Source: Schmidtea polychroa
Lineage: Eukaryota
Length of the DNA stretch: 64,000 nt
Reading direction: 5' to 3'
NCBI GenBank assembly: GCA_044892525.1
Contig: CM097888.1
Location: forward strand, 46,190,001 to 46,254,000
The position numbers were made by a program, and so were the translations under genes. The notes under the pieces are model-generated. The model saw only the letters and a list, made by a program, of their open reading frames with translations, had not been told where the DNA came from and did no database searches. Numbering within the stretch: the stretch's first letter is position 1; every line of letters begins with the position of its first letter. Of the stretch, positions 3,086 through 64,000 are shown piece by piece.

Positions 3086-3339
3086 GTAAGTAAATTGTTT
3101 TTGAAAATGAAGTAATTATGGCAGTAGTATAGTTAGAATTTTTCCCGCCCCTTTCATTGCAGATAAAATTTAGACATAGCAGTGATACTAAGTGATTTCG
3201 TCCCCCTATAATAAATTATTGTTGCGCCTCCCCTTTAAATTGGTTTCATAAAGTAAAAATTAAAAACGAGATTAAGAATGCAATTGATAACTTTATTTCC
3301 ATTTCACGTGTGAAAACAATGTTTTCTTAATCCAGTGCA

Positions 3340-17558: not shown

Positions 17559-17605
17559 CTCTTCTTCTGCCTCGTCTCTTCGTTGTCCATTTCCTATTTC
17601 ACAAT

Positions 17606-43580: not shown

Positions 43581-44581
43581 TGTATGCCAAATATAAGTTG
43601 GAAAGAGGGGATAGGTAATTTGCAAGTATGAAAATTTATGTTTCCCATTGGTATCAGTAGGATAAATATAAGTGTAGGTTTATGAGGGCTTATAAAAATA
43701 AGGGGATGTGATTGAAGTTTATAATTTCTCAGAAACATATACCTACAAACAGCATACCTCGGTAATATTAGTATGGATGAATTGGTAAAATCAATTTTAC
43801 AAATGATAAGTACACTAATACCATTATGAATGGCTACATATTGCTGGTTATGAGGACACTCTATAAAATCGCCAACTATAAATTTTTTACCAAAATACAG
43901 ATTAAGTAGTAGTTTGCTTAAGTAACATGAATGGTTGGAGATAGGGTACTATAGGGTTAATCGGTAAACTTATGGTTTGTATATAACATGATCATATTTA
44001 GGTATAGATGGTTAATGGACTTTATAGGCGATATATATGTATAATTTATGGGTTTATTAATAGTTACAAAGAACTTGTGAATTTTATAAGCAATATGTAT
44101 AGTAAAATATTTATGAATACTCTTAGAGGATTTATGAGTTCCATAAGTAAGGTATGTATAATGAATAAACTGATTTGCAATTTTATAAGTAAAAATATAT
44201 GTACAGTAATCTTTTAGTAGTAGTCGTAGATGATCTATAGGTTTTATAAATAAGGTACATATAATTAATATATTTATTAATAGACGTGAATAAGCAATAC
44301 ATTTAATACTAATTCTAGGGGGTTGGTGGGTTTATGAGGGATGCAGGATTGCAATTTATACTTTTATTATAAGTTTTTATAATTTATATTTTTATGAAAA
44401 CCAATTAGTTTAATTTTATAGTTTATATATCAAATTGTAGGTTTTTTATATATGTTTACAATTTATACTTTTATTATAAGTTTTTACAATTTACATTTTT
44501 ATGACTTCCAATTAGTATAATTGTATAAGTTTTATATTTTACTTTTTATGACATCCAATGAGTATGAGGTTATAATTTATA

Positions 44582-45154
44582 TATCAAGTTGTTGGGCTGA
44601 GTCGAAGGGTAGTTGGGAATTAGGGAAACTGAACTAAAATAAAATAAAAAATAAAAACAAATAAATTGACAAATAAAATAGAATAAAACATAAGAAAAAC
44701 AATAATTAGAAAATAAGAATTAAAACAAAAATATAAAGATGAGAAAAATTAAAATAAGACAATAGAATGACAGAAAACAACGTAAAATATAGTAAATACT
44801 AAGAAAATTAAGGAAAATAAATAAAAACATAATTTTAATAAAGAAAGTAAGAAGAAATAACTCGAAAACAAAGAAAATAAATTAAATTAATAAAATTAAG
44901 CGGTACTCAATTCTAATTGGTCCGCGCAAACAAAAAATTAATATATAAGCAGACATTAAAAACATAACAATTACTGTTAATCAAACCACCTCAATAGGTA
45001 AATCTATTCTACGACGGAACAGAACTCCAGCAACTAACGCACGATAACTCACGAGGACAATTCCAAGATTCAAAAGATTTTTACAGAACTAGACGACACT
45101 CGAGCATTAACTGATTCGACATAGTACCCTTTTCGACTCAGCCCATACTTGTAT
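44582..45154. mobile_element. MITE-like element, or LTR-internal inverted repeat, ~570 bp
   Basis: ~30-bp imperfect inverted repeats CAAGTTGTTGGGCTGAGTCGAAGGGTA / TACCCTTTTCGACTCAGCCCATACTTG; non-coding A-rich interior. Confidence 0.45.
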
Positions 45155-47400
45155 CAATCATTCGGTAAGGATTTTTGATTGCTTATTTTGGATTTTTAAG
45201 TAATGCGTATAGTTCAATAATATTCTTAATTTAAAAAATGGTTTTTCTTTTCGTTTGATGTTAGAATGCTTTATTTAAATTAATAATTTGCTTAATAATA
45301 AATGATTTGCTCGTTCAGAATTATCGATCTTTTATGAATTAATTTTTATGAATTATTATTGGAGACCATTCAATTTGGCGAGAAACGTGGCGTTGAGATA
45401 CTCTATGTCATGGTGTGAGGTGCCTTCGGGAGCTCCACCGGTGGACATAGGGTATTTCAATCACGCAGCTAGATTGGGCCGAAATGTGAGGGCTTCTTCA
45501 CGGGTCCAATCGCTGAAGGTGCGACTAAAATCTATAGGTAAATGGGAGCCGAAATTGATAGTCATGTAGTGATTGAAAACAAAGATATGTAATAAAGGAA
45601 TCGGAAAATTTTGATATATTCGCGTAGTGATTGAGGGTGTCACACTATCGTCTTCGAATATCGGTTTTGCTAAGCCTAAATTTTCTCTATCATCAATTTA
45701 AGTCGTGTGTCAAAAATTGTTCAAACCTTAGTGAGGCTATCTGTGACATATCTTCGATGTTCATACTTTTCACTCAGAATCTGTTCCGACCAATTTTTAG
45801 CCTATGACCTTCGGAACTGTTATTCCGTTCATCTAAAAGTTCTCTTAAAGACATAGTTGCCAGGAAGTCAAAGTAGATTGCTTCATACAAGTATTAGGTT
45901 TACTCGAAATGACTGCTTGTAAATAAAGAGTAGAATCAGGTAAAATGATTTAATCCAAATAGTTATTCAGAATTGCATAAAACGAGTTCGTTCCAAATAA
46001 AAGTTTAAATTACATAAAATGATTCGCTATCATAATTTTTTAGAATTTTATATAAAAGGAGTTACATACAATTAATTATCATAATCACATAAACTATTGG
46101 CATCAAATAATTTAAAATTGAAAAATGCAACCAATGCGAGCCACGAAAAATATATTTCTTCAAGTTAGCCGATGATCTTGTTAATTAAATATAAAATTCC
46201 AGTATTTCGTGGGGTTGGCAATCCAGCAGGGATAGGTAGAAATCCTCCAGCACTTAGAGAGTAGATCGATAAACTAGGTTTGAGGAATTAAAGACGAAAA
46301 ATCCACCCTTGGAGCAAGCTATATCCAACATTTGCAATACAGATAATTATAATTTTTCCAATAATCCGGTGAGAATTAGTAAATCAGCGCCATATGCAGG
46401 AGAATTGTGAGTGATTACGCGATAGATAAAATTCTGAGAAAATGACATCTTGCAAACATTTAACACCTACAATTGTAGTATAATTAAGTGTGTGACAGCA
46501 CACCCTGCATGCGTCAGCAGTTACAGACTCACCTAGTGGCCAAGTACAGTGGGCAAAGTCACACACGCCTCTACTCAGGAAAAATCCGACGAACATACCA
46601 GATGGAATTTCTATTAACCAATTAGACTACCGACAGGTATCATATTTCACCGCTCCGGATTAATAGTCAACCACCGGGCTGACATTTCCTTATCTACCTA
46701 GCAGGAATGGTCGGCTACTAGCTCACATTGATACTGTGCTCAGTTATCATAAAGACAATATTTTTTTTTTGTGCTAAACCCGATCGTAATTATGATTATT
46801 CTCTCTTTATTATCGTAGAATGAATGGCACGGAAATTATGTCATTTTTGACATAATTATCATTAATATTAATGTCGAATATTATTAATAAATAATATTTA
46901 AACCAGGCAAAACACATGTGAATAATTAGAGAGAATGAATAAATAATTAAAAATTTAAATAGCCTTCCGTTTATCCTGTAGGAATTAATCAACAGACATT
47001 ATGGACCCCTTTTCCATAGATAGTCACTCGACCCCAGTACATGATACCCTCATCAAAATCACTCGTACGGGGGGAGAAGTCAACAAGGTAACTCGATTCT
47101 CGGTAAACGTGAAATAATGACTTCAAGCGGATTGACTAAATAATCAATTTTCGTCGATCTAGAATTCCTCTCACTAATAGTATTACCTTCCTTTCCGTGT
47201 ACGGAATCTGGTTTGATCGATTTATCTTCTTATAATCAAAGACCCAAAAGGTATGAGAATCCATCGTGCAGTAGTACTTGTCTTGACTGGTAAACTCATA
47301 TTTTTGTCTATGATCAGTAAAGTATGAATGGGGTCAGATGGTGACACTCCCGTTGAGTTAATTATTTTCATTTTTCATTTTTTTTCACAGTCACTCAAAA

Positions 47401-48147
47401 ATGTTGCCAAATTCCAAGACCGTTCTTCGACCTTGTTTTTCTTGCTCCGACAAGAATTCAATTATCAAAGAGCTCCAGGCCCAAATCGGAAAGCACAAAA
47501 GAAGGATAGATGAGTTGGAGGGGACATGGTTTAGTCCCACCCAGATGAAGGAGGCTCAGAAGAAGCTGCATCGAAGCGAGCACTGTAGAGACGCGTTGAT
47601 TTCCGAGAGTCGGGCGCAGAGGAGCCTGATAAAAGAGCAGTCGGAGGCGCTGCACAAATTATACGTTGCAGCAGCTACAAGGAGGATCGCGAAGATCCCA
47701 ATTAATGAAGCCAGTAATCTTTTCCCAGCACATCATGATATCTCTGGCGGATCTTCTTCTCCAGTCGGAAAGTCCTGCCATGGGTGCGTAGAGACCGAGC
47801 TCTCACCTAAAGAACCAGAAATCATCTTTACCGGAACCAGTAAAGCGTTACCTGTGATGGCATCTACCTCTGCAGCACCCCCGACCAATCCAACGGCATC
47901 GAAGCCAAAGCGTCGGCAATTATCGAGAGCCGAACGCAAAAGGAAACAGCGGGAACGCGTAACCGCCAAACAGAACCAGCAATCGTCGGATCATCTAATC
48001 AAAGTCATCAACCCTCCTGCAGTAATCGATTTAGCATCAGTGATCTCAGGGCGAATCATCTCCGCCGCTGGGGTTTCCTGGGAGGAAAATGCCTCTGAAT
48101 TTTTCGACTTGGAAGATCTGTTGGCAGACTCAGAGTGGGAGAAATGA
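47401..48147 (+). CDS. LTR-encoded 248-aa protein (coiled coil, basic NLS-like stretch, acidic tail), unknown function
   Basis: Strong polypyrimidine-CAG acceptor ending 47390, just before the ATG; KRRQLSRAERKRKQRER; AATAAA at 48284. Confidence 0.6.
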   Translation: MLPNSKTVLRPCFSCSDKNSIIKELQAQIGKHKRRIDELEGTWFSPTQMKEAQKKLHRSEHCRDALISESRAQRSLIKEQSEALHKLYVAAATRRIAKIPINEASNLFPAHHDISGGSSSPVGKSCHGCVETELSPKEPEIIFTGTSKALPVMASTSAAPPTNPTASKPKRRQLSRAERKRKQRERVTAKQNQQSSDHLIKVINPPAVIDLASVISGRIISAAGVSWEENASEFFDLEDLLADSEWEK

Positions 48148-48283
48148 GAACTTCTCCGTAACAAGTCTTCGTTCACTGAAATGACCCGAACATTGTCGGA
48201 TAACATTTTTACCTTTGTTTCTTTTCCTGTGGTCGTAACTTTTATTGTATAGGTGTTAGGTATATTTGTGTGATAATCTTAAT

Positions 48284-48289
48284 AATAAA
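48284..48289 (+). terminator. Putative LTR polyadenylation signal
   Basis: AATAAA followed by a GT/T-rich downstream element, ~420 bp upstream of the LTR end. Confidence 0.5.
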
Positions 48290-48719
48290 CCATTTTGTCT
48301 GCATACGTTTCCTTTTGTGTTCATCCTAGGACAGTTGAGTTGAAATTGGTGAAGGGTATTGAGAGTCATAAAACTAGGAGGAGCATTAGTCAGTTGGCAA
48401 ACTCAGCTAGAAACATTGCGATGGGGCGACGGAATGAGTAGACGTAAGTCCTTCTATCGGCAGTCAGGGTTGGGAAGTCGAGGCCCCAGTAAGGAGTAGT
48501 CCGGAGGAGCTGGTTCACCTGCTTACTGGCGTCTCGCCGGCATAGCACAGTTCCAACGTGAAGCAATTCACGGGTGCTATGTTGGAGTGTAAGTTATGTA
48601 CGGGTCCCGCTCGGCGATGACCAAATAAATGATGGGCGAAATCGAGGTGGCATTCATCCTCTAGACTAAAGTTGCACTAGAAAGGGGTCATCCGAGTAGT
48701 GTACCCGCAACATAATTTT

Positions 48720-48737
48720 TGGGGGCTCAGCCGGGAT
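48720..48737 (+). promoter_or_regulatory. Primer-binding site, tRNA-Pro type
   Basis: TGGGGGCTCAGCCGGGAT matches 16/18 of the canonical MLV Pro PBS TGGGGGCTCGTCCGGGAT; it lies 7 nt after the CA LTR end. Confidence 0.8.
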
Positions 48738-49035
48738 ATAGATTGAAATTTCCATTGGTCAGTGTAAACTGGATAAGGATGTTATTGAGTGAATTTCTGT
48801 CGAATAGAGTGAACTCACCGGGGTAAGTGATTCCAATGGGTTAGCGAGTGCAAATTGACTAATGCTTATCGAATCTTATTATAAATCACGAATAGAAAAT
48901 AATAAAATTAAAAATATAAATAAAGCAAATTTAATGATGGAGAAATAAGATAAAAGTAAAATAACGATAACGAGTTAGATAAGAGAATGTCCGACGAAAC
49001 GAAGTCATATACTACTGAAACATTTTTTTTTAGAC

Positions 49036-49521
49036 ATGACGGAATTCAATGATCAGATACAACAACTAATCAACTTCATAAACATCGAGAATGACTCCCT
49101 TAAAACGCTGACACAAAAGAGAGAAAGAATTAACATCATACTACTCCAAGCAATCGGGCAAACACCAGCCGTCCCCAACCACATGTTATTAGCCACAGGA
49201 CTAAGTCACCCAGATGGGAAGGTAAACCCGGAAACCGTGTACCAATGGTATCAAGAGAGATTGAACCACCCAGCATTAAATCTTGATTATCAACGTATAA
49301 AAGATCCCTTAAATACCATATCAGATACAATCGAGCGGAAAATACAAGAAAAACTGACTCTACTACGAACTTGCCTTGCTTGTAAACTTCGTCCTATTCG
49401 CGTACTGTTTTTGCCGTGTGGACACCTCAGTCACTGCGAAGAATGCGGGAACGAGCTAACAAGATGCACGATATGTAAGCACGAGATAAAAGAAACTCAT
49501 ATGGTCTACTATGGTGAATGA
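49036..49521 (+). CDS. 161-aa protein with a C-terminal IAP-type C3HC4 RING finger (putative E3 ligase), no BIR
   Basis: CLACKLRPIRVLFLPCGHLSHCEECGNELTRCTICKHEIKETHMVY; splice acceptor TTTTTTTTTTAG 2 nt before the ATG. Confidence 0.88.
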   Translation: MTEFNDQIQQLINFINIENDSLKTLTQKRERINIILLQAIGQTPAVPNHMLLATGLSHPDGKVNPETVYQWYQERLNHPALNLDYQRIKDPLNTISDTIERKIQEKLTLLRTCLACKLRPIRVLFLPCGHLSHCEECGNELTRCTICKHEIKETHMVYYGE

Positions 49522-50158
49522 ATAGTGAAAGATACAGTAACATCTAGGAACATTGAATTTACACGGCTATTGAATGAGAATAAGTGTAATTGATGTGTGA
49601 AAATTGATTAAAGTTTTAATTTTTATTTTTTATGGTGAATAAATTTTTGTTATGAACTGAGTAATTATGGCTTTTAATCCTATTTTATAATTGTTTTTTG
49701 AATCAAACGAAAAGAAAACCGAACTAACGTGGAATTAGTCCCAATATAGGCTGTAAGGGTACAAACCGAGCCACCTTAGGGCGGTACGTTCTATCATACG
49801 ATAAAACCAATTGGGAGGGGATAACCGATCAACCTAAGTGAGGAGCGTAGGGCGGGGTACCATCGCAAATGATGAGAAGTTTCTGCGGCATGACTGATCA
49901 CCATGCCAATGTAGAAATGGATCATCGCGATCGTCGTGCGTTTTGAGCAAGGGGGGAAAGGGGACACACTCCCGTGCGGTAAAGATTAAGCCAACAAATT
50001 AAAAATAGACAGAGAAAATGGTAATCTTGAGTAAAAGAAGAAAGAGAGAAGTAGAAGGATGCAGAGTAAAGAATGTTAAAGCCGAGCTGTAAAATAGTCC
50101 AGCCGGTCAAGGGAAACGAAAACTGAGCTGTGAAAAGTCCAGCCAGTTCGGAGATATT

Positions 50159-50456
50159 AAGATCGAGTTGTTGAATAGTCCAACCGATCAGAAGGAGGAA
50201 GATTGAGCTGTTGAATAGTGCCAGCCAGTCGTAAGATCGAGTTGTTGAATAGTCCAACCGATCAGAAGGAGGAAGATTGAGCTGTTGAATAGTGCCAGCC
50301 AGTCGTAAGATCGAGTTGTTGAATAGTCCAACCGATCAGAAGGAGGAAGATTGAGCTGTTGAATAGTGCCAGCCAGTCGTAAGATCGAGTTGTTGAATAG
50401 TCCAACCGATCAGAAGGAAGAAGATTGAGCTGTTGAATAGTGCCAGCCAGTCGTAA
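50159..50456 (+). repeat. Tandem array of 4 x 74 bp (each two ~37-bp related halves) in the retroelement leader
   Basis: GATCGAGTTG recurs at 50161, 50235, 50309 and 50383; degenerate half-units at ~50080-50150. Confidence 0.95.
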
Positions 50457-51168
50457 AGGCCTAGAAAAGCGAGAGATAGCAGTTAAGCTACAATGAGGTA
50501 ATATTTAAATTACTAGTGAAATGGAATATTAAAGCTAGCTAGAACAAATAGAAGGTAATTACGAAAATTTGAGTTTAGAGAGGAAATAAACGAGCTCGTG
50601 GAAAAGATAATAAGATTATAATGAAAAAGGAAAGGGAAGAAGGAAACGAATTAAAGAGATAATGGAAAATAAAGAATAGGCGAAACGATGATAATGAGTA
50701 AAGAGGAAAGTAACCAACTAATTAAAGGGACCCCAGTGAAGTAGAGAAACTCTACGGAATAATATTTTTCTTTTTTGGGCGAAGCGGGAGAATATATTTT
50801 ATTGGTTCCAGAGTAGAACCGAGTGAGATAATAGTAAATACGAAAAGTAAAACAGCGACAACCGCGCAAAAAGGACTAGGAAAACGAAAGGGGGGTAATA
50901 AGCAGTGACCGACAACGACCTATTCCTATTATAAGTGATAAAAATAGATAATTATTACGACTCTATAGATAATTGTTACTACCCCATATAGATAATTTAA
51001 AATCGACGAAAATTTCGGGCTGATGGGAGATTATAACCCGCGGAAGTAATTGCATAAAAAATAGGGGAAGCATAAACAGAACCTAAAAGGTGTCTGTGTT
51101 TGAATGTTGCAGAAAGAATGATGAAGTCGTGTAAGCAGATGCAACACGAGATCATTTTTTCATTTTAG

Positions 51169-51489
51169 ATATCAAACCAATCCAGTCAACCAAGACAATC
51201 CAGAACCCGCACAAAAGGAATTCGAAGAAATCGACAATCGACCAAGAATAAATCCATTCAGAACCCGCACCGAGAGACACAGCAACCGGAAGACTCCAGA
51301 ACGGAAGAAGATACAGATAGCGACATCTCCAACTTCGAACGAATCATCGATATATTCAACCTCATAGTATTAGCAGCCATCTGTCAAGGACTAGTAAATC
51401 TCCTCAGAATCACAGTAGCAGATTCATACAGAATACTTATCGAAGGAAACACAATCAGAACTGAACTCGTCCAATTCAGTAGCCGCTAA
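51169..51489 (+). CDS. ATG-less 106-codon open frame, probably a spliced exon of the retroelement
   Basis: Begins at a TTTTTTCATTTTAG acceptor; R/Q/S-rich region, acidic patch, then hydrophobic IIDIFNLIVLAAICQGLVNLL; stop TAA at 51487. Confidence 0.4.
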   Translation: MSNQSSQPRQSRTRTKGIRRNRQSTKNKSIQNPHRETQQPEDSRTEEDTDSDISNFERIIDIFNLIVLAAICQGLVNLLRITVADSYRILIEGNTIRTELVQFSSR

Positions 51490-51827
51490 TTACCAAGAAG
51501 CGTAAGAAAGGAATCACGGATAAACCCAATCTTAGATCTTCAAGTAAGCCAGGAGACGTATTATTTTCAGGAGACGAATTACAACAACTCAAAAGAGGAC
51601 GATCTATTAAACATCAAAGAGGAATATCACAAGGATCAAGAAGAACCAATCAAGTACCTATATTTGACCAAGAAAATCTCGGATACACCCCTAGCCGATC
51701 TCGAAGCAGAGAAAGTCTGTCCGACATCACTAATAGTTTAGCAACGTCAACCGAGGAATTATCAGCCCAAAATTTAGTCACGTCACCGGATAATTTAAAA
51801 GAAACCGACGAATCTAGAACACCAATC

Positions 51828-54800
51828 ATGACGAATGTCGTAAAAACCGACGAGTATAAAGAAAAGTTCCGAGGAGAACCGTTCAATGGAAATGCAAACA
51901 AGCTAGCAACGTTCATAACTAATTTTGAAGTTTATATCACTGTGTGTGGATGGACACCCGAAGCAATTAGTAAAAGGATGCCGTTGTTTTTGTGCGATAG
52001 CGCATTAGAAGTATATTTAGAAGCTAAAGAGAGAGATACGAAATTAGAAAAGTGGGAAGATATCAAAACATTCCTGAAGAAAACCTTCGGAGCCAGTAAG
52101 CCAATCAACCAGGCGTTGGGCGAACTAGCAAATAGGAAACAAAGAGCAAATGAATCCATCACGTTATATGCCAGTGAATTGCGGAGATTGGCAAAGAAAG
52201 CAATGAATGGGAAATTACCAGAAGAAAATTTGATCGGTTATTTCATAGAGGGATTACGCCGAGAAGAAGTAAGAGCCTCAGTAGGTTGTCAAATGTGCAA
52301 AACATTAGAGGAAGCCATAGATTGGGCTACAAGATGCGAGCTCCACCTTCCAGCTCAAATGAATATTATGCAAGAGGAGGGAAGGATAATGACAGCAATA
52401 GCGAAAGCGGATAACGGAGATAACAACAATCAAGAACCGAAAATGAATCAATTTATACCAGGAGCGCACCAAATTTTCAAACCACCACAAGGACGATCAA
52501 ATGGGAATAATGGTAATCGTAACAACCCGAATAATGAGAACAATTTTAATAATCGACGAAATATGAACGATAACAAGCAGTGTCGAACATGCGGTAAACC
52601 AGGACACTGGGACAGAGATTGCTATAGAAATTCAAATTGTAATCGTTGCGGACGGCGTGGACATACCGAAAATGTATGCCAATTGAGAGGTTGTTTTAAC
52701 TGTGGTCAGCCAGGTCACATCTCCAGAGATTGCCGAGAAAGGGGCCAACAACAACGACCACCACAGCGAAATAATAATTATATGGCGAATCCGCAACGAC
52801 AAAGTAACCCTAGCGAAGGAAAACAAATGAACGTTATGCAGGAAATCTCGCAGATGAAACAGATGATGCAACAAATGATGAGACCGAGACCGGAATCAGC
52901 ACCACAACAAACCCAGAATATACGTATGATGAGGAGTACCGAAAATCTCAACAATTATGAAGTGCATCAACATGTACAAGAATGGCAAAGACTACAGGCC
53001 GAGGAAGAGAGGATAAAACAAGAACGCAACCAACAACGACAAGAACAACCATTGCGAATTAATATGATGAAGTTAGTAAAAGACATGAAAAGCCAGTATT
53101 GCTACAATTACGGGAAAAACCCAAGGGTAGTACCCATGACTGAACCAGAAAAGGTAACAGAAACAACAACGGAAATGAAAACAGAGAATTCAACCACGAT
53201 TTTAAAAGGAAACCCGAGAATTCAGAAAATATTCTGGAAAAAGATAAAAGATAAAATCGAAAAAGAACATAATAAAGCGAAAGCCGAGACAGAAGATGAA
53301 AATAACAAGAGCAAGGAACAAACCAGTCAACTAAACCACCAAATGCTACAAGAATTAGAATCAGAAGAAACAACGATATTCGAAAGAAAGAAACTAAAGA
53401 GAGTACCAAGGATGAGAAATTTGCAAATCAATATGATGAAAAGGACAAAAGATGTAGCATCGTCAGACGAAGAAGAAGACTATGTAAGTAGTTTGGGTGG
53501 AGAAATACTACAGCTAAATGAAATAAGCGAACCTCCAAAAGGGGAAATCAAAGAGGAAGAAAGCGAAAGCGAGATAACAAGTGGAAGTGAAGACGAGGAT
53601 ATCGAAATAAAGTTGAGAAAAGCAAGGGAGGAAGCGATAAAACAGGTAGCCGAAATACTCCCGGCGGTAGTGAGAAACCAAGAGTTCATCGACGTAATAC
53701 CATTCAGGCGATTCGTGCAAAAAGTGATGAAATTGGAAAGAAACGAGAAAGATTTAATACCAAACGAGGAAAAATCAATTATAAAAAAGTATATGGAAAA
53801 AATGAAGCAGGCCGATACCACGCGGTATGTAATAAAAATCGGAACGAGCAGAGGACTTGAAAGAATGTGGATCAAAAGTACAGTCACCGACGAACTTTTC
53901 GATTGGATACGAGAACATTTGGGAAATTCGAGAAAGAAAGAATATCTGTATCAATACCAAGGAGAACAGATCAAACCAGATATGCACTTAGTAGATGCAC
54001 TAATATGGCCAGGAGAAACGCAAATACTGAAGTTGCATAAAGAAAAACAACCAGCCAACCTTTACGATTGGGCTAAAGATGCCAAGGCAGAATATGATTT
54101 TAATATCAAATTGAAATTAGAACAAATAAAACAATGTACTCTGAGACGAAACCTGGATAAGCTGATCAAACAAATTCAAGAACAAGTAGAAGACAACTGG
54201 GAATTACTCATCACCAGACGAGCCCCAGCCATGTACGAACTAATGAGCCGATTGCGAGATACAGAAATGCTCCGGATGAGTGATTGGAGAACCATAAATT
54301 TGATCCACAAATATGGAAGGTTAAAAGAAACCCAGCCACAGAGGTTGGAAATAACCATATGGTTACCGAACGAAGAAAAACGACGAATAAAAATGAGCAA
54401 TCGGAGTACAGTGGATGACTTGGTATCAAAGATAAACCAAGAGATAACGGAAAAGGTACGTAGCGAAAGTAGTGATGGTATGGTGGATGATGTAGTCATG
54501 ATGTACGATAAAATAATATTACGAGCAGAAGACGACACCTCGTTAAGCGAATTGGGTATGTGGAACAATCATCAGATCATCAGGATAGTACCAATGGATG
54601 AATTTCGAACAAGAGATGTAATCTATCAAAAAGAAATACGAGACCGGATGAAAACGTTATATCAAAAATCTACAGAAATAATTGAAATCCACCAACAATG
54701 GTTAAAAGAAAAAGAACTACAAGGAAAAATCACGAAATTAAGCACCAGATCCTGCAGACGAACCCCATGGGAAAGAGTGTGGAATGCAGAAAATAAGGAA

Positions 54801-57800
54801 TGGGAAATCCGGAAAGGAATCTTCGTAGAAACAGACATTGGTGAGACAGAAAGTGAATCGGAGGAAGAAGAAGAGGAACCTCCAGAATATGAAGAGGAAG
54901 CAAGGGGACAGACATCAGATGACGAAAGCGAGACGGATGTCACATCAGAAAGCGAAAATGAAGCGAGACATATTCATGCAATGAGGAAAAAGGAACGTGA
55001 ATATGCTGATATGGACGGCGAGGAAGCGACGGAAGCAAGAGAACGAGAAGAGAAAGAAAGATATAAACAATTAGGCGATATCTTAGCAATGGGAGCGAAA
55101 AATCAAAAACGCCAAGTAGTAGCGTTGGCTAACATCATCTTAAAGACATCAGAGAACATCCACAATCTGAGAGGAATGGCAAAGGCAATAGAGGAATACC
55201 GGCAATATAATGAATGGTATCCAGAACAGCTAGAACAAATTATTCGAAAATGGAGAAATCAGGAATGGGCACAAGACACTCAGGAGAGGAATCACATCCG
55301 AATCAAGTATCCGGACAAGAGCATCGAGGAACTAGAGGTGCATCCAACAACAAAGATTAGAGAATTAAAAAAGAAATTAGCATATGAAACTCCATTCCAT
55401 CTGCAACTGTTCGGAAAATCACTAGACGATAATGCAGACGTCGGAATAACACCCATGAGATTGGAAGAGACAAATGTGTTAACAATGGCAGAAACGTTGG
55501 GAAAGCCGTTAAAAAGGAAAAGTAAAATTACTAAACCAACAAAAAGCAGTTTGAGTACTCCAAGTCCGAACAAAGCACCAAGTAAATCTAATGAAACTGA
55601 AGAAGTTGAAGAGATAATCCTGGAAGATAGTGACGATGAACCAGGAGAAAGATCACCGCTATTAGTAAGATGGCCGACAGGAGCCGAAATGTGGACTAAT
55701 AACCAGCCATCAACGAGTTATCAACAACCAACGAAACTAAACATCAAAGAAATCATCGACAACACTACGGAAACCGAAACGGATGAACAATTCCAGAAGC
55801 AAAGAGAACCAACGAAAGTAACACCAGAAGGTCAAACCGATAAAATAATAGATGAATGGAATGAGTGGCTAAGAAATAACGATAGCTCATTACCCAGAAC
55901 GGATAACGAAAGAAATCCGAATTACGAAAATACCAGAGAAGCCGGAACGATGATGGAAAAACGGGCAAAAGGAAGACCTAAGAAACAAGGAGAAAAGTCT
56001 GAGTTCAAAACCAAAGAACAATTAAAGCAAGAACAAGGGCAAGTTCGATTAGAAAAATTGGATAAAATAGTATGGGATCTAAAGGAAGCCCAACCAACGA
56101 TCGAAAGAGGAGAAAAATGGATACGAGAATTGATCAAAGATATGTTAATAATAACAAACCCACAACTTAGACGTTTGTGGCAACGGAAAGTAGCCAGTAC
56201 GGAAGCTAGACAATTATGGCACATCGTTTCGGGGATAATCCCAAAGTTAATCAAAGAGAAAACGAAAACCACCAAAACGGATTGGGATGAAACGAAGAGA
56301 GTGATTGCACAACTCACGACAAATGCAAATGATGACGAACATCATCTAGTGGTAATCACGTATTTGATGTATAATTTGATGGGACTAGCTGCGAGGAAAA
56401 TACCAAATAAACAGTTTGCAAATCATGTGGAAATGACCGTTTCAATCATAGAAAATACTATTGAACCACATATTATTCGTGCCGGAGGATGGAAAAGACT
56501 GATACAAGCGCCACGAAAAAATGAGCAAGAAAGGTCGATGCAAGTTAGATTGAAAAAACTGTTAAATGAACTAGAATGGGAACTACCGATGAAAGATCCC
56601 GCAAGCAGAAAAGCATCAATAAATTCGTTAATGATGACTATGATGATATGGATGTTGTGCACAAGTGGAGCAACGGGTTTTACCATCTACGATTGTGATA
56701 ATATGATAATGAGAGATATATACTCATTGAGAGACATAGAAGAATGCAGACAAGCATCACCCAACAAATTAGACATAGTAAGAACAAAAGTTACTTACCA
56801 TGTATATCAGGAATCAGATTTCATCAGAACGCAAGCAAGGGAATGCGTGGTATCAAAAAAGGTACTCGCATATTACTGTGGACAATATTCGTATTCGACT
56901 CTTATACTACCCGGCCTGGACAAAGAAATCGTATCAATACAACGAGAGGACTGTAAAGAGCTATTTAGAACCGGAGCGTTAAAAATGCATAACGGAGTGA
57001 CGATTCACGGACAAACTGGAATGATTAAAACCGAAAGTGTTTACGTATCCGGAAAAGTAAAATCATCAGATGGGTCATGTAACGGAGGTACGTATACGAT
57101 CCGAGGCGAGGTAATATCGGGAGTAGTAGTGATCGAGTCTTATACGGTTGAATTAAAAGAATACGAAGCGCAATTTGACGCAAATAATTACCAAATGAAG
57201 ACCAACCCAGCGTGTAGGGCTACAGAAAACGTATGCAGGACAGGAGTATCAACTATAATCTATGAAGCTAATACCCAAAAATGCCGACTCCAACTGTTAA
57301 AAAGTGCCTTGTTCAATGAAGTAAAAGGAGAAATATATGAGAACGAGAACGACGAGGATGGAAACGACAGGGTGAGAATGCGAAATGGAAAACCAATGCC
57401 ACCATCTCCCAGAGAAAAGAGACTTTCAACGCAGAAGACACCAACAGCATTAATCACAGACGATCCAGATCTAGGTATGAGATTTATCAAAGAGAAAGAA
57501 ACCACCAAATGTGACAGTATAGTATATAAAACCAATTACGCAGGCATCTATATGTCGAGACAAATAATCGATAGAGCAGTGGGAAAGATAGCAACGGAGG
57601 ACGTAAAACTATACTTATATGCAAATAATAAAATGGATTTTCTATTTCATCGCGGACAAACGACCTTGCAAAAAGTATATTACGATCTGATACAAAACGA
57701 TTGTTCATTGAATAAAGAAATATTGAAAACAAAGCTAGCTATTGCGATAACGCACCCAGATAACACGATGCCATCACTCCCATTACCGGATGGACATTTT

Positions 57801-60800
57801 GGTAGAATGGTAGGAGAAGTAATGTACACATACCAGTGTACCAAGACGTATGCACGAATGCCAGAAAAATCTATACTACCCGAAAAGAGATGTGCAAATG
57901 AATTAGAAATCCGTTATAAAGGACAAAATCGATTCGTCCAACCAGTCACTAGAATTATGAATCCAGTGGGTTTCTACCCAAATCTCTTTAACTGTTCTAA
58001 TGCATACGGACCTTTGTATGAAAGGCCCGATGGGAAATGGATGATGTTACCGGGAAAAACCATATCCGAGGAGCCCAAGAAATTTGGATTAATAGAACTC
58101 GCCACAGAGCTGGATTTCAAACCTATAGACGTGTCAAACGGTGGTATGTATTCCCCAGAAGATCTAGAAACAGCACGACTTAACGTACTCTTCCCAGCCA
58201 GACGAGAATCCATTTTGTCAAATATGGTTACAATAACGGGGGGAACAAATTATCAATCAGGCCCGAATTACGAACTGCTACTATCGCCAGACCATTTTCA
58301 ACAAGCCACGTCAAACATGATGAAAGCAATGTGGGGAAGATTCTTAGTTTTTGGACAAATGATGGCCGGGATATTAGGGATCATACTCATAATTCAGATA
58401 GTCAGGGTAATATTAACACAAATGTTAGCTTGTTTTGATATATACAAGCGGGAAAAGAAAGTAAATTGGAAAATGATAGTAGGCTTTCTACCATTTTTAG
58501 CAAAAACCATGGTATTACATGGTCACTCAAAAGACATTCATCGGATAAAGCGATTGATTAAAATATTAACAAAGATTAAAGGAACCGACGAAGAAGTAGG
58601 CAGACGATTCCGGAAAGTAATGTACGATGAAGCAACAAGACGACAATTGAAAAAGAATAAGCCAAAATTCTTGGACCGATTTAGAAGCCAATCATCTAAC
58701 AGCGATAGTGACGACGATGATAACGGGAACGACAAATGTCTATATCCAAACAGAAACCCAAACGAAAAACCAATGGAAACGGCACCATATTGGGAAAAGG
58801 AAAAGACAAATACCTGGATCGCCAATGGAAGCTACATACCACCGGATATCGTGGGACCACAAGCAGCTTTGACCATGACACAAAATATGTATCCGCAATT
58901 ACCAAGTCAACCCGGTATGCATTATATGCCAACACGACGTACCAAAAGTGTAGATCAAGCAGATGACGTAAGAACAATAGCAGCGATGAGTCTACCTGGA
59001 GGTCCAGCAGTAACAGTTATGATTCGAATCAATGGTAAAGAAACCAATGCTATGATAGACACCGGAGTTAATGTATCAGCGATAGCGATTAATCAAATCC
59101 CCAGTAAACACTGGAAAGATATCGAATCAACAACAATTCACATCATAGCATGTAGTAAAGAAACAGTGGACGTGGTCGGAAGATGGTGGACTACTTTGAG
59201 ATACCAGGACAACGAAATTGAAACGTATTTGGCAGTAATACCAAAACTTAGCGTACCATGCATAATCGGAACGGATTTGATGCCAGAATTGTTAAAAGAA
59301 GTCGTAATTGACTTAACAACCATGTGTTTAAAAGACAAAACCGGTAGAATATGCAAAATGAATGCAGTCATCAGATGTCCAGAAAAAATAATAGTACCAG
59401 CAAAATCGCAGATGATTTGTCAGATAAAAGTGGATACGGGTATGGAAGGAGAAGTTATCTTTGAACCAAGCAAGTCATTTGAAAAGCGACGAGAATTACC
59501 ACTCGCAAGAGAAATAATCACAATAAACCAAGAAGGAGTGATACCGCTCAACATCACGAATTTCGAAGAGGAAGACAAAATCATTTATGAGAACGAAAAA
59601 TTGGGAAGATTGACCCCAATGATGGACATAGAATTACCGAAAATGACCAACGAGATGAGCAAAGATGATGAATTATGGACAATAGATAGTATGTTGTTGA
59701 CGAATGATGAAAAGAAAAAATTGCACCGATTGTTGGTAGAATATAAAGATATATTCGCCATCTCAGATTTAGACTTGGGTACATGCGATGTTACCCTACA
59801 TGCAATACCCCTCATAGATGAAACTCCAATTGCATTAAGACCATACAAGCTAGCAGAAATGCAAAAAGAAATAGCCGAAGCAGAAGTACAAAAGATGCTG
59901 GACGCAAAAGTAATCGAACCGAGTTGCTCACCCTGGCAATTCCCAGTGGTCATGGTAAAAAAGAAAGATGGCACCCAACGATTCTGTATCGATTATCGGA
60001 AGTTAAACGCAGTAACCAAGAGAGATACCTATCCATTGCCGGACATCAATGAGATGTTATTGATGTTGCAAGGGGCAGCATATTTTACTTCTTTAGATCT
60101 TAAAAGTGGATACTGGCAAATTAAAGTCAAAGATGAGGACAAAGAGAAAACAGCTTTCACGTTGGGACGAGATCTATATCAATTCAGGAAAATGCCATTC
60201 GGACTAACCAACGCACCAGCATCATTTCAACGATGTATGAACTTTGTCACTCATGGAATCAAACAATGTATGGTATATATTGATGATTTACTAATCTATT
60301 CAGCGACATTTGAACAACATCTGGAAGATATCCGAAACGTATTTATTAGATTAAGACAGTGGAAACTCAAACTCAAACCATCAAAATGCGATTGGGCAAA
60401 GGAAAAAGTCACGTTTTTGGGACACATAGTGTCAGCTAAAGGAAAGGAGCCAGATCCAAGAAACATTGAGAAAATAAAAACATGTCCAGCACCGAAAACT
60501 GTCACCCAAGTTCAGGAATTTCTAGGATTATGCGGATACTATCGCAAATTTATCAAAAATTATGCAGGAATTGCAAAACCAATCCAGGAATTAGTAAAGA
60601 AGGACATTTCGTTCATTTGGGGGAAGGAACAACAAGAGGCGTTTGAAACGCTGAGAGATAAACTAATCGAAGCACCTATCCTCGTACACCCAGATTTTAA
60701 GAAGCCATTTCTATTGGCAACGGATGCAAGCGGGTACGCGGCAGGCGCGATTCTGGGACAATTAGACGATGAAGGAAAAGAGAGAGTAATCGGGTATTAC

Positions 60801-63800
60801 AGTCGAACATTCAAAAAGCACGAAAAGAACTATTCGGTAACAGAACGAGAAGCATTGGCTATAATACAAGCTATCAAACACTTCCGATACTTACTATGGG
60901 GACATGAGATATGTATAACCACAGATCATCAACCATTAGTGTGGTTATGGCAACATAAAGAAGCGTCCAGTAGACTGATGAGATGGGCCATGCAATTGCA
61001 AGAATACTCCCCATTTATAAAATTCAAAGCGGGAAGAGCAAATGCCAACGCCGATTGTATGTCAAGATTTATTTTTCCAGATTTGGTAGATTCAGAAATG
61101 CAAAGCATATGCTTAATAGTAGCGGAAGATTTGGATTTCTGTCAATTGCGAAAGGACCAACAAGAGGACGCGGAATTAAAACAAATTATCGATTATGTAA
61201 AAACCGGAAAGACAGATGTATATGCGAAAGACCAAAAATTAAAAGAACATATGGATAAACACCAACACCGATATATTATAGAGAAAGATTGGTTGCTGAT
61301 AATGGATGGGGAAAAACGATTAATGTGTATACCGGAAAACCGACGAAAAGAGTTGTTAACGCAATATCACGATGGGAGATTGGGAGGACATATGTCATCG
61401 AAAAAGACGTTAGCAAGAATGAAACAGAAATATTTTTGGCCTACGTTAACCGAAGACGTAACCGAATGGGTAAAAAATTGCCTAACTTGTGCGACCAGGA
61501 AAAATACTGGATCGAAATGGAAAGCACCTTTGACGCCAATGCCGGTACCAATAGAGCCGATGACGATGATATCCATGGACGTAGTTGGTCCACTACCAGA
61601 GTCAGATAAAGGAAATATTTACATTTTAGTGATTACCGACTTTCTCACGAAATTTCCAGAAGCATTCGCGATGCCAGACCAAAAAGCTAAAACAATCGCA
61701 AAAATTTTGGTAGAAGAGATATGTTGCCGATATGGAACACCAAAACAGATATTAACCGATCAGGGAACTAATTTTATGAGTGAGATAATGAGCGAAGTAA
61801 CGAACTATTTCAAAATCGCAAAATTGAGAACAGCACCGTATCATCCTCAAACCAATGGGATGACGGAAAGATTTAATGGAACACTTATACAAATGTTATC
61901 AAACTACGTCGACCGTCACCAACGAGATTGGGACGAATATATAAACCTATGTCTTATGGCGTACAGAATGTCGATTCACGCATCAACGAAAATGAGCCCA
62001 TTCAAATTAATGTACGGAAGAGAATGTAATATGCCAATGGACCTGGAATACCAACCACCGATATCGCAGTATATGGAGATCGATGATTATGTTACGAAAT
62101 TCAAGGAAAGAATGCAAGAAATTTGGGAAACTGCGAAATTAAATATCAAGTTCTACCAGGAAAGTTATAAAGATTTACACGATCGAAAGAAAAACGTGAA
62201 GCAACATACGTTTCAAACAGGTGATTGGGTAATGATAGAAACCCCGGAATTAATTCCAGGAACCACAAAAAAGTTACAACGCAACGGAAAAGGACCATAT
62301 GAGATCTTATTCGTAGGCGAAACCAATGTAAGAGTGAAATTGGTAAATAATCCATTCACCAGGCCAATATACGTAAACGTGGCACGATGTAAATCAATTC
62401 CAAAAACCGCCACCAGTCAACCGGAAGGTCGAACATTAACCACACGTTCGCAAACCTACAAAATGAACATGATGCAACAACTCGCAGAACCGATCACTGG
62501 ACGATTGGTCATACAACCATCGGAAGCGGAAAAAATCGTACGAGAGGTAAAGACAAAATTACCCGGATGGGCAAAAGATCGATTAGATTTCGAAATATTA
62601 GGAGGATTATTGACGATGATCGAAAACTATGCAAATAGAGAAAGGACACACCCATTATTGCGAGTAGTCAAAAGCCAATGGCCAATATTATTCACAATAA
62701 CAGATCATTATGGAGACACACCATTACACAAACTCATGAAAGTAGGTAACAACGAGCAAATACTGGAAACAATAGAAGCATTTCACGACTGCAAGCGATC
62801 AACAGAACAAGAAAACAACCAAGGTTACACACCATTAATGATAGCAGCAAACAGAGGCAAAACAAAAGACATCATAACCGCATTACTTGATACTGGATCA
62901 AAAATAACTACACAAGATCGCGAGCGGAAAAACGCACTACATCATGCTATCGAAGGGAAAAGTACCGAAGCGTTCACATCGTTGATGGAGTTACTATCAT
63001 ATGAGGACAATCAAGAAGTTGGAAACATGTATGATGGATTATTAACAGCGATCAAAGAGAAACTGACAACAATTACAGGAGTATTAATCACTTGGAGAAA
63101 CCCAATTAGAAATAATTATATGATCAACGTAAACGAAGCATTCACGAAAGGGGAGAACACGCTTATGAGAGAAGCTATGAAAGGACATCATTTATTCGAA
63201 ATCCCGAATCAATTGTTAGAACGAGGGATAACATTCACAAATCATAAGGATGAGCAGTTATTAAAAAAGCGAATAGACGCATTCGAAAAATCAATATTCC
63301 AATTTACTAACCAAGTACGGAATAAATATTGGGAAACGGTAAGTGTGTTATATATGATGGACACAATGAATAACATCCGCGAGAATTACCTGGATATTAT
63401 CCAAATACTTACAGCAGAGGAACGAATCAATAATCCAAACGGAAAGAAAACGAAAATAAGGTATGGGAAATCAAGGGAACCAAAGTCGACAACGAACCAA
63501 ACGGTCACAAACAACGTCATCGAAACCAAATCAATGAGTATAGATCAAGAGGCAATAATACGCAAAGCAAAAGAAGTATTCTTCGAGGAAACGCTAGAGC
63601 TGTCAGACGAAATAATATTGTCAAAAATAATAAAAGCCGTACACACATACGCAAGAGATCAAACCACGGGTTTAGATATCGGGAAAATCAAAACCTTCTT
63701 GCCTCGAGCATTTACGATGGTGACGAAAGATTCAAGAACACCATTACAACAAGCAATACTAGCTGCAAAAGAGAATAGAGCAATAACGATCATAAGAATC

Positions 63801-64000
63801 CTTGGGGATATGGGCGAGGAAACCAACACGAAAAATGAACAAGGCGAAACCGCCATGATGTATGCAGCTATAACAAAAATACACCCAAAAACACTCCACA
63901 TCCTACATCAATCAGGATCGAGACTAGACGAAAAATCAAACGAAGGGAACTCCACATTGGACTGGGCAACCATACAGCCAAACTTGGAAATGATCAGATT
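51828..64000 (+). CDS. Giant polyprotein, >4057 aa, 3'-partial: Gag CA, 3xCCHC, 3xUBL, Bcl-2-like, signal peptide, fusion glycoprotein, TM, PR, dUTPase-like fold, RT, RNase H, IN, ankyrin repeats
   Basis: Same frame checked at ATG 51828, FTIYDC 56679, DTG 59058, YIDD 60276, IN D61578/D61758/E61866 (D-35-E) and the window end. The ORF track lists no terminated ORF in this frame. The frame is open upstream to 51483. Confidence 0.93.
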   Translation, partial: MTNVVKTDEYKEKFRGEPFNGNANKLATFITNFEVYITVCGWTPEAISKRMPLFLCDSALEVYLEAKERDTKLEKWEDIKTFLKKTFGASKPINQALGELANRKQRANESITLYASELRRLAKKAMNGKLPEENLIGYFIEGLRREEVRASVGCQMCKTLEEAIDWATRCELHLPAQMNIMQEEGRIMTAIAKADNGDNNNQEPKMNQFIPGAHQIFKPPQGRSNGNNGNRNNPNNENNFNNRRNMNDNKQCRTCGKPGHWDRDCYRNSNCNRCGRRGHTENVCQLRGCFNCGQPGHISRDCRERGQQQRPPQRNNNYMANPQRQSNPSEGKQMNVMQEISQMKQMMQQMMRPRPESAPQQTQNIRMMRSTENLNNYEVHQHVQEWQRLQAEEERIKQERNQQRQEQPLRINMMKLVKDMKSQYCYNYGKNPRVVPMTEPEKVTETTTEMKTENSTTILKGNPRIQKIFWKKIKDKIEKEHNKAKAETEDENNKSKEQTSQLNHQMLQELESEETTIFERKKLKRVPRMRNLQINMMKRTKDVASSDEEEDYVSSLGGEILQLNEISEPPKGEIKEEESESEITSGSEDEDIEIKLRKAREEAIKQVAEILPAVVRNQEFIDVIPFRRFVQKVMKLERNEKDLIPNEEKSIIKKYMEKMKQADTTRYVIKIGTSRGLERMWIKSTVTDELFDWIREHLGNSRKKEYLYQYQGEQIKPDMHLVDALIWPGETQILKLHKEKQPANLYDWAKDAKAEYDFNIKLKLEQIKQCTLRRNLDKLIKQIQEQVEDNWELLITRRAPAMYELMSRLRDTEMLRMSDWRTINLIHKYGRLKETQPQRLEITIWLPNEEKRRIKMSNRSTVDDLVSKINQEITEKVRSESSDGMVDDVVMMYDKIILRAEDDTSLSELGMWNNHQIIRIVPMDEFRTRDVIYQKEIRDRMKTLYQKSTEIIEIHQQWLKEKELQGKITKLSTRSCRRTPWERVWNAENKEWEIRKGIFVETDIGETESESEEEEEEPPEYEEEARGQTSDDESETDVTSESENEARHIHAMRKKEREYADMDGEEATEAREREEKERYKQLGDILAMGAKNQKRQVVALANIILKTSENIHNLRGMAKAIEEYRQYNEWYPEQLEQIIRKWRNQEWAQDTQERNHIRIKYPDKSIEELEVHPTTKIRELKKKLAYETPFHLQLFGKSLDDNADVGITPMRLEETNVLTMAETLGKPLKRKSKITKPTKSSLSTPSPNKAPSKSNETEEVEEIILEDSDDEPGERSPLLVRWPTGAEMWTNNQPSTSYQQPTKLNIKEIIDNTTETETDEQFQKQREPTKVTPEGQTDKIIDEWNEWLRNNDSSLPRTDNERNPNYENTREAGTMMEKRAKGRPKKQGEKSEFKTKEQLKQEQGQVRLEKLDKIVWDLKEAQPTIERGEKWIRELIKDMLIITNPQLRRLWQRKVASTEARQLWHIVSGIIPKLIKEKTKTTKTDWDETKRVIAQLTTNANDDEHHLVVITYLMYNLMGLAARKIPNKQFANHVEMTVSIIENTIEPHIIRAGGWKRLIQAPRKNEQERSMQVRLKKLLNELEWELPMKDPASRKASINSLMMTMMIWMLCTSGATGFTIYDCDNMIMRDIYSLRDIEECRQASPNKLDIVRTKVTYHVYQESDFIRTQARECVVSKKVLAYYCGQYSYSTLILPGLDKEIVSIQREDCKELFRTGALKMHNGVTIHGQTGMIKTESVYVSGKVKSSDGSCNGGTYTIRGEVISGVVVIESYTVELKEYEAQFDANNYQMKTNPACRATENVCRTGVSTIIYEANTQKCRLQLLKSALFNEVKGEIYENENDEDGNDRVRMRNGKPMPPSPREKRLSTQKTPTALITDDPDLGMRFIKEKETTKCDSIVYKTNYAGIYMSRQIIDRAVGKIATEDVKLYLYANNKMDFLFHRGQTTLQKVYYDLIQNDCSLNKEILKTKLAIAITHPDNTMPSLPLPDGHFGRMVGEVMYTYQCTKTYARMPEKSILPEKRCANELEIRYKGQNRFVQPVTRIMNPVGFYPNLFNCSNAYGPLYERPDGKWMMLPGKTISEEPKKFGLIELATELDFKPIDVSNGGMYSPEDLETARLNVLFPARRESILSNMVTITGGTNYQSGPNYELLLSPDHFQQATSNMMKAMWGRFLVFGQMMAGILGIILIIQIVRVILTQMLACFDIYKREKKVNWKMIVGFLPFLAKTMVLHGHSKDIHRIKRLIKILTKIKGTDEEVGRRFRKVMYDEATRRQLKKNKPKFLDRFRSQSSNSDSDDDDNGNDKCLYPNRNPNEKPMETAPYWEKEKTNTWIANGSYIPPDIVGPQAALTMTQNMYPQLPSQPGMHYMPTRRTKSVDQADDVRTIAAMSLPGGPAVTVMIRINGKETNAMIDTGVNVSAIAINQIPSKHWKDIESTTIHIIACSKETVDVVGRWWTTLRYQDNEIETYLAVIPKLSVPCIIGTDLMPELLKEVVIDLTTMCLKDKTGRICKMNAVIRCPEKIIVPAKSQMICQIKVDTGMEGEVIFEPSKSFEKRRELPLAREIITINQEGVIPLNITNFEEEDKIIYENEKLGRLTPMMDIELPKMTNEMSKDDELWTIDSMLLTNDEKKKLHRLLVEYKDIFAISDLDLGTCDVTLHAIPLIDETPIALRPYKLAEMQKEIAEAEVQKMLDAKVIEPSCSPWQFPVVMVKKKDGTQRFCIDYRKLNAVTKRDTYPLPDINEMLLMLQGAAYFTSLDLKSGYWQIKVKDEDKEKTAFTLGRDLYQFRKMPFGLTNAPASFQRCMNFVTHGIKQCMVYIDDLLIYSATFEQHLEDIRNVFIRLRQWKLKLKPSKCDWAKEKVTFLGHIVSAKGKEPDPRNIEKIKTCPAPKTVTQVQEFLGLCGYYRKFIKNYAGIAKPIQELVKKDISFIWGKEQQEAFETLRDKLIEAPILVHPDFKKPFLLATDASGYAAGAILGQLDDEGKERVIGYYSRTFKKHEKNYSVTEREALAIIQAIKHFRYLLWGHEICITTDHQPLVWLWQHKEASSRLMRWAMQLQEYSPFIKFKAGRANANADCMSRFIFPDLVDSEMQSICLIVAEDLDFCQLRKDQQEDAELKQIIDYVKTGKTDVYAKDQKLKEHMDKHQHRYIIEKDWLLIMDGEKRLMCIPENRRKELLTQYHDGRLGGHMSSKKTLARMKQKYFWPTLTEDVTEWVKNCLTCATRKNTGSKWKAPLTPMPVPIEPMTMISMDVVGPLPESDKGNIYILVITDFLTKFPEAFAMPDQKAKTIAKILVEEICCRYGTPKQILTDQGTNFMSEIMSEVTNYFKIAKLRTAPYHPQTNGMTERFNGTLIQMLSNYVDRHQRDWDEYINLCLMAYRMSIHASTKMSPFKLMYGRECNMPMDLEYQPPISQYMEIDDYVTKFKERMQEIWETAKLNIKFYQESYKDLHDRKKNVKQHTFQTGDWVMIETPELIPGTTKKLQRNGKGPYEILFVGETNVRVKLVNNPFTRPIYVNVARCKSIPKTATSQPEGRTLTTRSQTYKMNMMQQLAEPITGRLVIQPSEAEKIVREVKTKLPGWAKDRLDFEILGGLLTMIENYANRERTHPLLRVVKSQWPILFTITDHYGDTPLHKLMKVGNNEQILETIEAFHDCKRSTEQENNQGYTPLMIAANRGKTKDIITALLDTGSKITTQDRERKNALHHAIEGKSTEAFTSLMELLSYEDNQEVGNMYDGLLTAIKEKLTTITGVLITWRNPIRNNYMINVNEAFTKGENTLMREAMKGHHLFEIPNQLLERGITFTNHKDEQLLKKRIDAFEKSIFQFTNQVRNKYWETVSVLYMMDTMNNIRENYLDIIQILTAEERINNPNGKKTKIRYGKSREPKSTTNQTVTNNVIETKSMSIDQEAIIRKAKEVFFEETLELSDEIILSKIIKAVHTYARDQTTGLDIGKIKTFLPRAFTMVTKDSRTPLQQAILAAKENRAITIIRILGDMGEETNTKNEQGETAMMYAAITKIHPKTLHILHQSGSRLDEKSNEGNSTLDWATIQPNLEMIR

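Follow-up and report, generated by a model that had tools for sequence, protein, structure and literature searches.

The 161-amino-acid open reading frame (ORF) at positions 49036-49521 of a 64,000-nucleotide stretch of Schmidtea polychroa DNA (the window, to whose numbering positions refer) is a real accessory gene of a Burro-type retroelement, conserved across copies, and a separate gene from the published B-IAP of such elements. We call it the leader RING, and use family A for the family of the window element and family B for a sister Burro family. Positions for E2 binding appear lost, dimer positions appear kept and the gene is under purifying selection; on these grounds we give a probability of about one half to the reading that the leader RING is an MDMX-like RING partner of low catalytic activity, which would dimerise with host IAPs and tune their ubiquitination.

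A RING gene in the leader of a Burro-type element

The gene had initially been described as retroelement-encoded, and it does lie inside an element with an LTR (44590-48712), a primer-binding site (PBS) and 4-bp target site duplications (TSDs). The features of the element and of the gene are as follows.

44590..48712, + strand: 5' LTR of a Burro-type giant Gypsy, 4,123 bp, TG...CA, with a 5' border common to copies
47401..48147, + strand: 248-aa ORF inside the LTR, without a Pfam match, open in divergent copies too
48444..48449, + strand: candidate splice donor in the LTR; the same 9-mer stands about 560-610 nt before the ATG in 13/16 copies inspected
48720..48737, + strand: PBS, starting 7 nt past the LTR end
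49005..49033, + strand: pyrimidine tract and YAG, likely splice acceptor, 2 nt before the ATG
49036..49521, + strand: leader RING ORF, ATG at 49036, TGA at 49521, 161 aa
49036..49371, + strand: predicted helical N-terminal region, residues 1-112, AlphaFold pLDDT about 48-88 by block, omega about 0.24
49372..49476, + strand: C3HC4 RING of IAP/IDOL type, residues 113-147, from Pfam, PDB matches and structure superposition
49477..49521, + strand: C-terminal tail, then stop, with Tyr158 at the cIAP1 Phe616 position
51483..64000, + strand: polyprotein (gag, Ubl-like, Bcl-2-like, fusion glycoprotein, PR, RT, RH, IN, ankyrins), extending beyond the window

The LTR has its 3' end at 48712-48722 in nine of the 12 copies fetched, similarity being lost earlier in three divergent ones, and the TSD was found in 8/8 copies tested. 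The PBS, presumably of the tRNA-Pro type, has a core motif that is present in 64/64 family-A and 20/20 family-B copies. The leader RING gene lies 316 nt 3' of the PBS, in the leader upstream of gag and outside the LTR. The idea that the RING might be inside the LTR, which came from three copies 26,181 bp apart, was rejected, since the locus proved to be a tandem array with the LTR ending at 48712.

Downstream of the leader RING, the polyprotein exceeds 4,100 aa, and accessory ORFs including a TRAF come after it. A gag-env-pol polyprotein, Ubl, Bcl-2-like and ankyrin modules, long LTRs and the TSD together identify the window element as a Burro giant Gypsy. It resembles Burro/GYPSM1 of planarians in its one polyprotein, in which env separates gag from pol, its multi-kb LTRs and its Ubl, Bcl-2-like, ankyrin and TRAF cargo (PMC6431247; this and all other papers are cited from those parts of their text that were available). 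That text describes a BIR and an AIR1 motif, but the part available names no IAP-type RING as an ORF of its own in the PBS-gag interval, and family A is without a BIR. The preliminary description had seen in the neighbouring Bcl-2-like, ubiquitin-like and ankyrin domains a coordinated cell-death and ubiquitin toolkit. The ankyrin matches held up, whereas the Bcl-2-like (E 0.063) and ubiquitin-like (E 0.66) domains stayed below the Pfam cut-off; the toolkit idea had already been published for Burro elements (PMC6431247; B-IAP cited in PMC13465017). We found no description of the leader RING ORF in the literature searched, although the Burro papers and their supplements may annotate it; the available parts of PMC7831173 and PMC11410931 hold nothing that bears on the gene.

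A YAG stands before the ATG in 64/64 family-A and 20/20 family-B copies. In the latter the acceptor AG abuts the ATG (20/20), and its phase differs from that of family A (0 nt versus 2 nt). Between the PBS and the start there are 4-8 upstream ATGs in family A (16 copies inspected) and 19-30 in family B, and the family-A number argues against scanning of unspliced RNA. The leader RING is therefore likely to be translated from a predicted spliced RNA in which a non-coding LTR leader would be joined to the acceptor. A strong donor at 48824 was discarded, its core being present in just 3/64 leaders. No GT-AG junction onto the acceptor occurred in the contigs of six runs, three of which are only guessed to be RNA, a result that is uninformative either way.

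An IAP-type RING without a BIR

The zinc ligands of the leader RING follow the pattern C113-x2-C116-x11-C128-x-H130-x3-C134-x2-C137-x6-C144-x2-C147. The IAP-type spacing, the LFLPCGH motif and the extreme C-terminal position of the RING, all pointed out at first inspection, are there in the sequence, and in the HMMER search proposed at that stage Pfam zf-C3HC4_3 matched with E 3.9e-11, above the cut-off. The top matches in a PDB sequence search were the cIAP2 and cIAP1 RINGs (E 4e-10). In an AlphaFold model built from a 12-row alignment the RING has a pLDDT of about 90 and superposes on the RINGs of cIAP2, IDOL and BIRC7 with an rmsd of 1.0-1.3 Å; the N-terminal region is predicted, with less certainty, as a helical bundle and a long helix that runs into the RING. 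An earlier model from a 7-row alignment was poor outside the RING. By its C3HC4 spacing, terminal position and fold this is an IAP-type RING (PF13920), and it shares ligand spacing, a pre-RING helix, a tail aromatic and fold with the RINGs of cIAP1, cIAP2, XIAP, BIRC7 and IDOL. It differs from them in having no BIR or CARD and in E2 and ubiquitin contacts that appear eroded.

There is no Pfam BIR within the leader RING ORF, as had been stated. Since an IAP (BIRC) protein is defined by at least one BIR domain, the leader RING does not count as an IAP. The BIR profile also found no match in the six frames of window positions 44000-64000, in the rest of the window element, in the fetched stretches of two further family-A members or at the Maverick loci scanned; as positive controls, the same profile recovered the BIRs of B-IAP and of two intron-containing host genes. 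Host BIR+RING genes are present in the same genome. Since family A and the scanned Mavericks are without a BIR gene, an IAP partner would have to come from the host or from another element.

Purifying selection across copies

The genome carries at least 150 copies of the leader RING, the best 150 of 3,484 candidates having been scored (75-100% identical). Of these, 144 have no internal stop, a figure that is biased by the ranking. For the analysis of selection, 64 loci gave 63 full-length ungapped sequences and 48 unique ones, of which six with stops were dropped and 42 used. The codon model for these 42 intact unique family-A copies returned an omega of 0.178 (lnL -2554.4 against -2674.0 at omega 1), which excludes neutral decay among copies, named beforehand, together with a lack of E3 activity, as what would speak against the initial proposal. 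Both the N-terminus and the RING are constrained, and pairwise dN/dS between subfamilies is 0.04-0.26 with synonymous distances reaching above 1.

A gene separate from B-IAP

Burro1 is reported to protect planarian stem cells through its B-IAP (Lee et al., Dev Cell 2026, as cited in PMC13465017). Like the leader RING, B-IAP is an element-borne IAP-type RING, and its context is anti-apoptotic. Family B, whose RT is 90% identical to that of family A, has a 392-aa BIR+RING gene 3' of its TRAF, at the 3' end of the element, with a canonical Pro-x-Cys-Arg loop; we take this gene to be the B-IAP, on the basis of the available text of PMC13465017. Family B also has a 160-aa RING ORF after its PBS (three copies inspected), at the same leader position and in at least 150 copies. 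The 160-aa protein is an orthologue of the leader RING, 26% identical to it over the whole length, and the pre-RING parts of the two proteins align on their own (hhalign 93%).

The identity between the leader RING and B-IAP is 35% across the RING. B-IAP combines BIR and RING, lies 3' of TRAF and groups with host IAPs; the leader RING, a gene of its own without a BIR, occurs in both families and has Maverick-borne relatives, and it fell in another clade in three trees, although a joint clade was not rejected (AU p 0.077). A degenerate B-IAP was rejected: the leader RING has no BIR, family B carries both genes and the two occupy separate tree clades. The leader RING is thus a second IAP-related gene in both Burro families, including the one without B-IAP, and Burro knock-down phenotypes may reflect the loss of both B-IAP and the leader RING.

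A BIR-less RING family common to Burro elements and Mavericks

When 1.84 billion representatives were searched with a profile, a sister-type protein was the one full-length match, and RING-driven matches followed it. Among the latter, five short unnamed proteins, picked by eye and score, also resemble the N-terminal part; this link is of moderate strength (the best pairings reach 49-79%, family A alone stays below 1%). One of the five, searched against the genome, returned at least 150 scored matches. The genomic relatives that we inspected adjoin PolB, and their elements also encode a packaging ATPase and an integrase, which makes these elements Maverick/Polintons, and two metagenome contigs (L215 and L216) have relatives within Burro-like accessory regions. 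On contig L216 the BIR-less RING stands directly before the TRAF ORF, with an exonuclease-like ORF after it.

In a RING tree of 62 columns, from which one relative with a broken RING (L214) was left out, 18 BIR-less rows were split off together by one branch (97/90), and B-IAP joined the host IAP-like RINGs (97/95). The BIR-less grouping was kept with four long branches removed under a mixture model (93/92) and with six E2-face columns dropped (91/88), B-IAP plus host reaching 98-99 in both cases. The RING trees rest on 56-62 columns, and in an AU test a single clade of leader RING plus B-IAP was not rejected (p 0.077). The phylogeny that the preliminary description had proposed against IAPs thus groups the leader RING with BIR-less Maverick and Burro-like relatives (support 91-97); it is B-IAP that sides with host IAPs. 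We conclude from sequence comparison that the leader RING belongs to a BIR-less RING family common to the Burro elements and, in the same genome, the Maverick/Polintons, an unrelated class of DNA elements. In 17 Maverick-borne relatives omega was 0.32 (lnL -1418.0 against -1433.7).

It is possible, though we hold it only tentatively, that BIR-less pseudo-ligase RINGs were exchanged between LTR retroelements and Maverick/Polintons and kept by both as decoys or scaffolds that rewire host IAP dimers; this shared control of stem-cell death would predate B-IAP, a captured gene, and not depend on it.

Other searches added little. A word search with the window protein gave 19 candidates, none significant; a search for longer proteins with the N-terminus of the sister protein fused in gave 63 candidates, none significant, which is weak evidence; viral contigs searched with P0067 gave no match; and the ESM Atlas gave RING clusters only. 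Small RING proteins of iridoviruses, ascoviruses and giant viruses, found as BFVD matches, are similar in size (130-210 aa) and in their C-terminal IAP-like RING, but their match to the leader RING is confined to the RING or has a high rmsd.

The N-terminus had been called novel and helical. It is predicted to be helical; it is not wholly novel, since it is common to the Maverick/Polinton relatives and those on other contigs. The UBA of IAPs is a three-helix domain with an MGF-like loop that precedes the RING. In the relatives the N-terminus contains a helix-GY/F-helix-helix stretch that weakly matches the UBA segments of invertebrate IAPs (hhalign 21-33%; the score was 21, whereas shuffled controls reached 10.7 at most). 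Direct comparison of the leader proteins with IAP UBAs gave about 1%; the UBA resemblance is weak and transitive. A structure search with the N-terminus found generic helical bundles (Z 8 or less) and no UBA among the 50 matches listed, and the relatives' N-terminal profile had no match in the PDB. An origin of the leader RING as a 5'-truncated IAP (UBA-helix-RING) is plausible but tentative on these comparisons.

Eroded E2 contacts and a conserved dimer face

cIAP1 binds E2 through a core around Val573 and Met575 and contacts the donor ubiquitin through Ile604 and the linchpin Arg606, with the tail Phe616 required in trans (PMC6349121). In cIAP2, V568E abolishes dimerisation and L585A/I590A abolishes E2 binding (PMC3172091, in which IAP RING heterodimers were proposed). 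We tallied the corresponding residues in 13 BIR-less lineages and 17 BIR-type IAPs; the 13 lineages are related, so that the tallies are descriptive and do not count independent events. The Val573-type hydrophobic residue occurs in 3/13 BIR-less against 17/17 BIR-type sequences, the Met575 type in 2/13 against 15/17, the proline at cIAP1 603 (a mapping made in this analysis) in 0/13 against 15/17, the Ile604 type in 6/13 against 17/17 and the arginine linchpin in 1/13 against 16/17. The residues that replace them vary between lineages, as expected from relaxed constraint. On the dimer side, the cIAP2 Val568-type position is kept in 12/13 against 15/17 and the tail aromatic in 13/13 against 11/17.

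In family A, Leu124 and Tyr158, the equivalents of cIAP2 Val568 and cIAP1 Phe616 as judged from sequence, occur in all 42 intact unique copies. Among the E2 and ubiquitin contacts of the window copy, Ala115, Lys117 and Thr145 are non-canonical, Leu141 and Ile146 (equivalent to cIAP2 L585 and I590) are kept and Lys148 is a partial match. The linchpin is lysine in 30 and arginine in 10 of the 42 family-A copies, and aspartate in 17/17 unique family-B copies. In RNF38, lysine is among the best linchpin substitutes and supports some activity, and XIAP functions with tyrosine there, the preference having been tested with one E2 only (PMC12326332). The dimer face, with an omega of 0.076, is the best-conserved non-zinc set tested in family A, compared with 0.31-0.43 for the E2 face and 0.03 for the zinc ligands; these codon sets are small and partly post hoc, having been picked after the column table had been viewed. 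The name E3 ligase, given to the protein at first, is not supported by this family-wide pattern, in which E2- and ubiquitin-contact positions appear eroded, and the conserved dimer surface fits the predicted heterodimerisation with IAPs.

A possible partner of host IAPs, and alternatives

If the leader RING is an MDMX-like partner, a non-coding LTR leader would first be spliced to the acceptor before its ATG. The protein would then dimerise through its pre-RING helix, RING core and Tyr158 tail, and the heterodimer would receive the leader RING tail in trans with little added E2 binding. Most probably the partner IAP would then ubiquitinate itself less and be turned over more slowly, which would help the cell that hosts the replicating element to survive; which way this effect runs is the least secure step. 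RING heterodimers with an inactive scaffold have been noted (PMC12326332), and MDMX-type scaffold RINGs resemble the leader RING in the proposed mode, with a dimer tail kept and weak E2 recruitment of their own (PMC12326332; PMC6349121). The analogy is functional only, as the leader RING is not of the MDM2 family; if it holds, the leader RING would be a mobile-element counterpart of MDMX that acts on IAPs. Against a weak ligase stand the Leu141, Ile146 and lysine linchpin of the window copy, the omega below 1 of the E2 face, the relatedness of the lineages, the AU p of 0.077 and trees of 56-62 columns.

A less probable but serious alternative is that the leader RING is an active homodimeric E3, perhaps with a non-UBE2D E2, whose helical N-terminus would recruit substrates, for instance restriction factors, IAPs of the host or proteins encoded by the element. 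The protein retains Leu141, Ile146, the tail tyrosine and the full set of eight zinc ligands, 40/42 copies have a lysine or arginine linchpin, the linchpin preference is known for one E2 only (PMC12326332), and large DNA viruses have small RING proteins annotated as ubiquitin ligases. This reading has to accommodate loss and scatter at five E2/ubiquitin contacts across the family and the aspartate linchpin in 17/17 family-B copies.

It is rather unlikely that the protein is a ubiquitin-independent dimerisation scaffold, acting through its N-terminal helices in replication of the element or in TRAF/Bcl-2-like signalling. The selection on the N-terminus would suit such a role, as would the positions of relatives, which immediately precede the TRAF ORF on two Burro-like contigs and neighbour PolB in Mavericks. 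However, retroelements and Mavericks share integrase alone among replication proteins, which makes a common host target the simpler account, and the tail aromatic is known to function in ubiquitin transfer (PMC6349121).

We consider it very improbable that the ORF represents a shortened Burro1 B-IAP or the terminal exon of a BIR-RING protein made by splicing. The splice acceptor before the ATG, the 35% identity to the RING of B-IAP and the AU p of 0.077 would fit, but the acceptor phase differs between families (2 nt versus 0 nt) while the ATG is fixed, family A has no BIR, family B has both genes and B-IAP groups with host IAPs (support 97-99). A neutral relic spread by recent amplification is the least credible reading: there are many near-identical copies, and the best-scoring ones come first in a search, but dN/dS is 0.04-0.26 between subfamilies at synonymous distances up to above 1, length and position are the same in a family only 26-27% identical, and the codon model refutes it.

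Other features of the elements and the window

The window copy opens a tandem array (LTR-internal-LTR-internal-LTR-partial) of 26.18-kb units that are 99.7-100% identical; the third unit ends within gag, and the array is either a genuine tandem or an assembly duplication. At two further fetched loci (L039 and L047) internal sequence flanks an LTR on both sides. The LTR segment at 45373-45529 is about 91% identical between subfamilies otherwise 72-77% alike and resembles a structured RNA, and a 74-bp tandem repeat lies at 50083-50456, between the leader RING gene and gag. The 3' accessory TRAF-like ORF of the window element (positions 3226-4662 of the fetched stretch L031) is complete (RING, coiled coil and MATH) and 30% identical to its family-B counterpart, compared with 90% for RT.

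Elsewhere in the genome, C1:8681499-8729989 and C2:188141033-188165955 are arrays in which units of about 1 kb repeat in tandem, every unit carrying a Maverick-type BIR-less RING frame, the C1 array being flanked by oppositely facing PolB frames; at C3:20294001-20324000 three divergent BIR-less RING members lie within 16 kb among Maverick remnants. On the minus strand of the window, positions 28405-37107 hold a repeat-rich 2,900-aa ORF with a PP1-binding domain (E 5e-10), a host gene that we take to be Ki-67-like. Other transposons in the window are a decayed LTR element (4755-7367), an intact Tc5/pogo-type DDE transposase (8215-9762), a small Gypsy (14523-18675) and hAT fragments (25202-26538).
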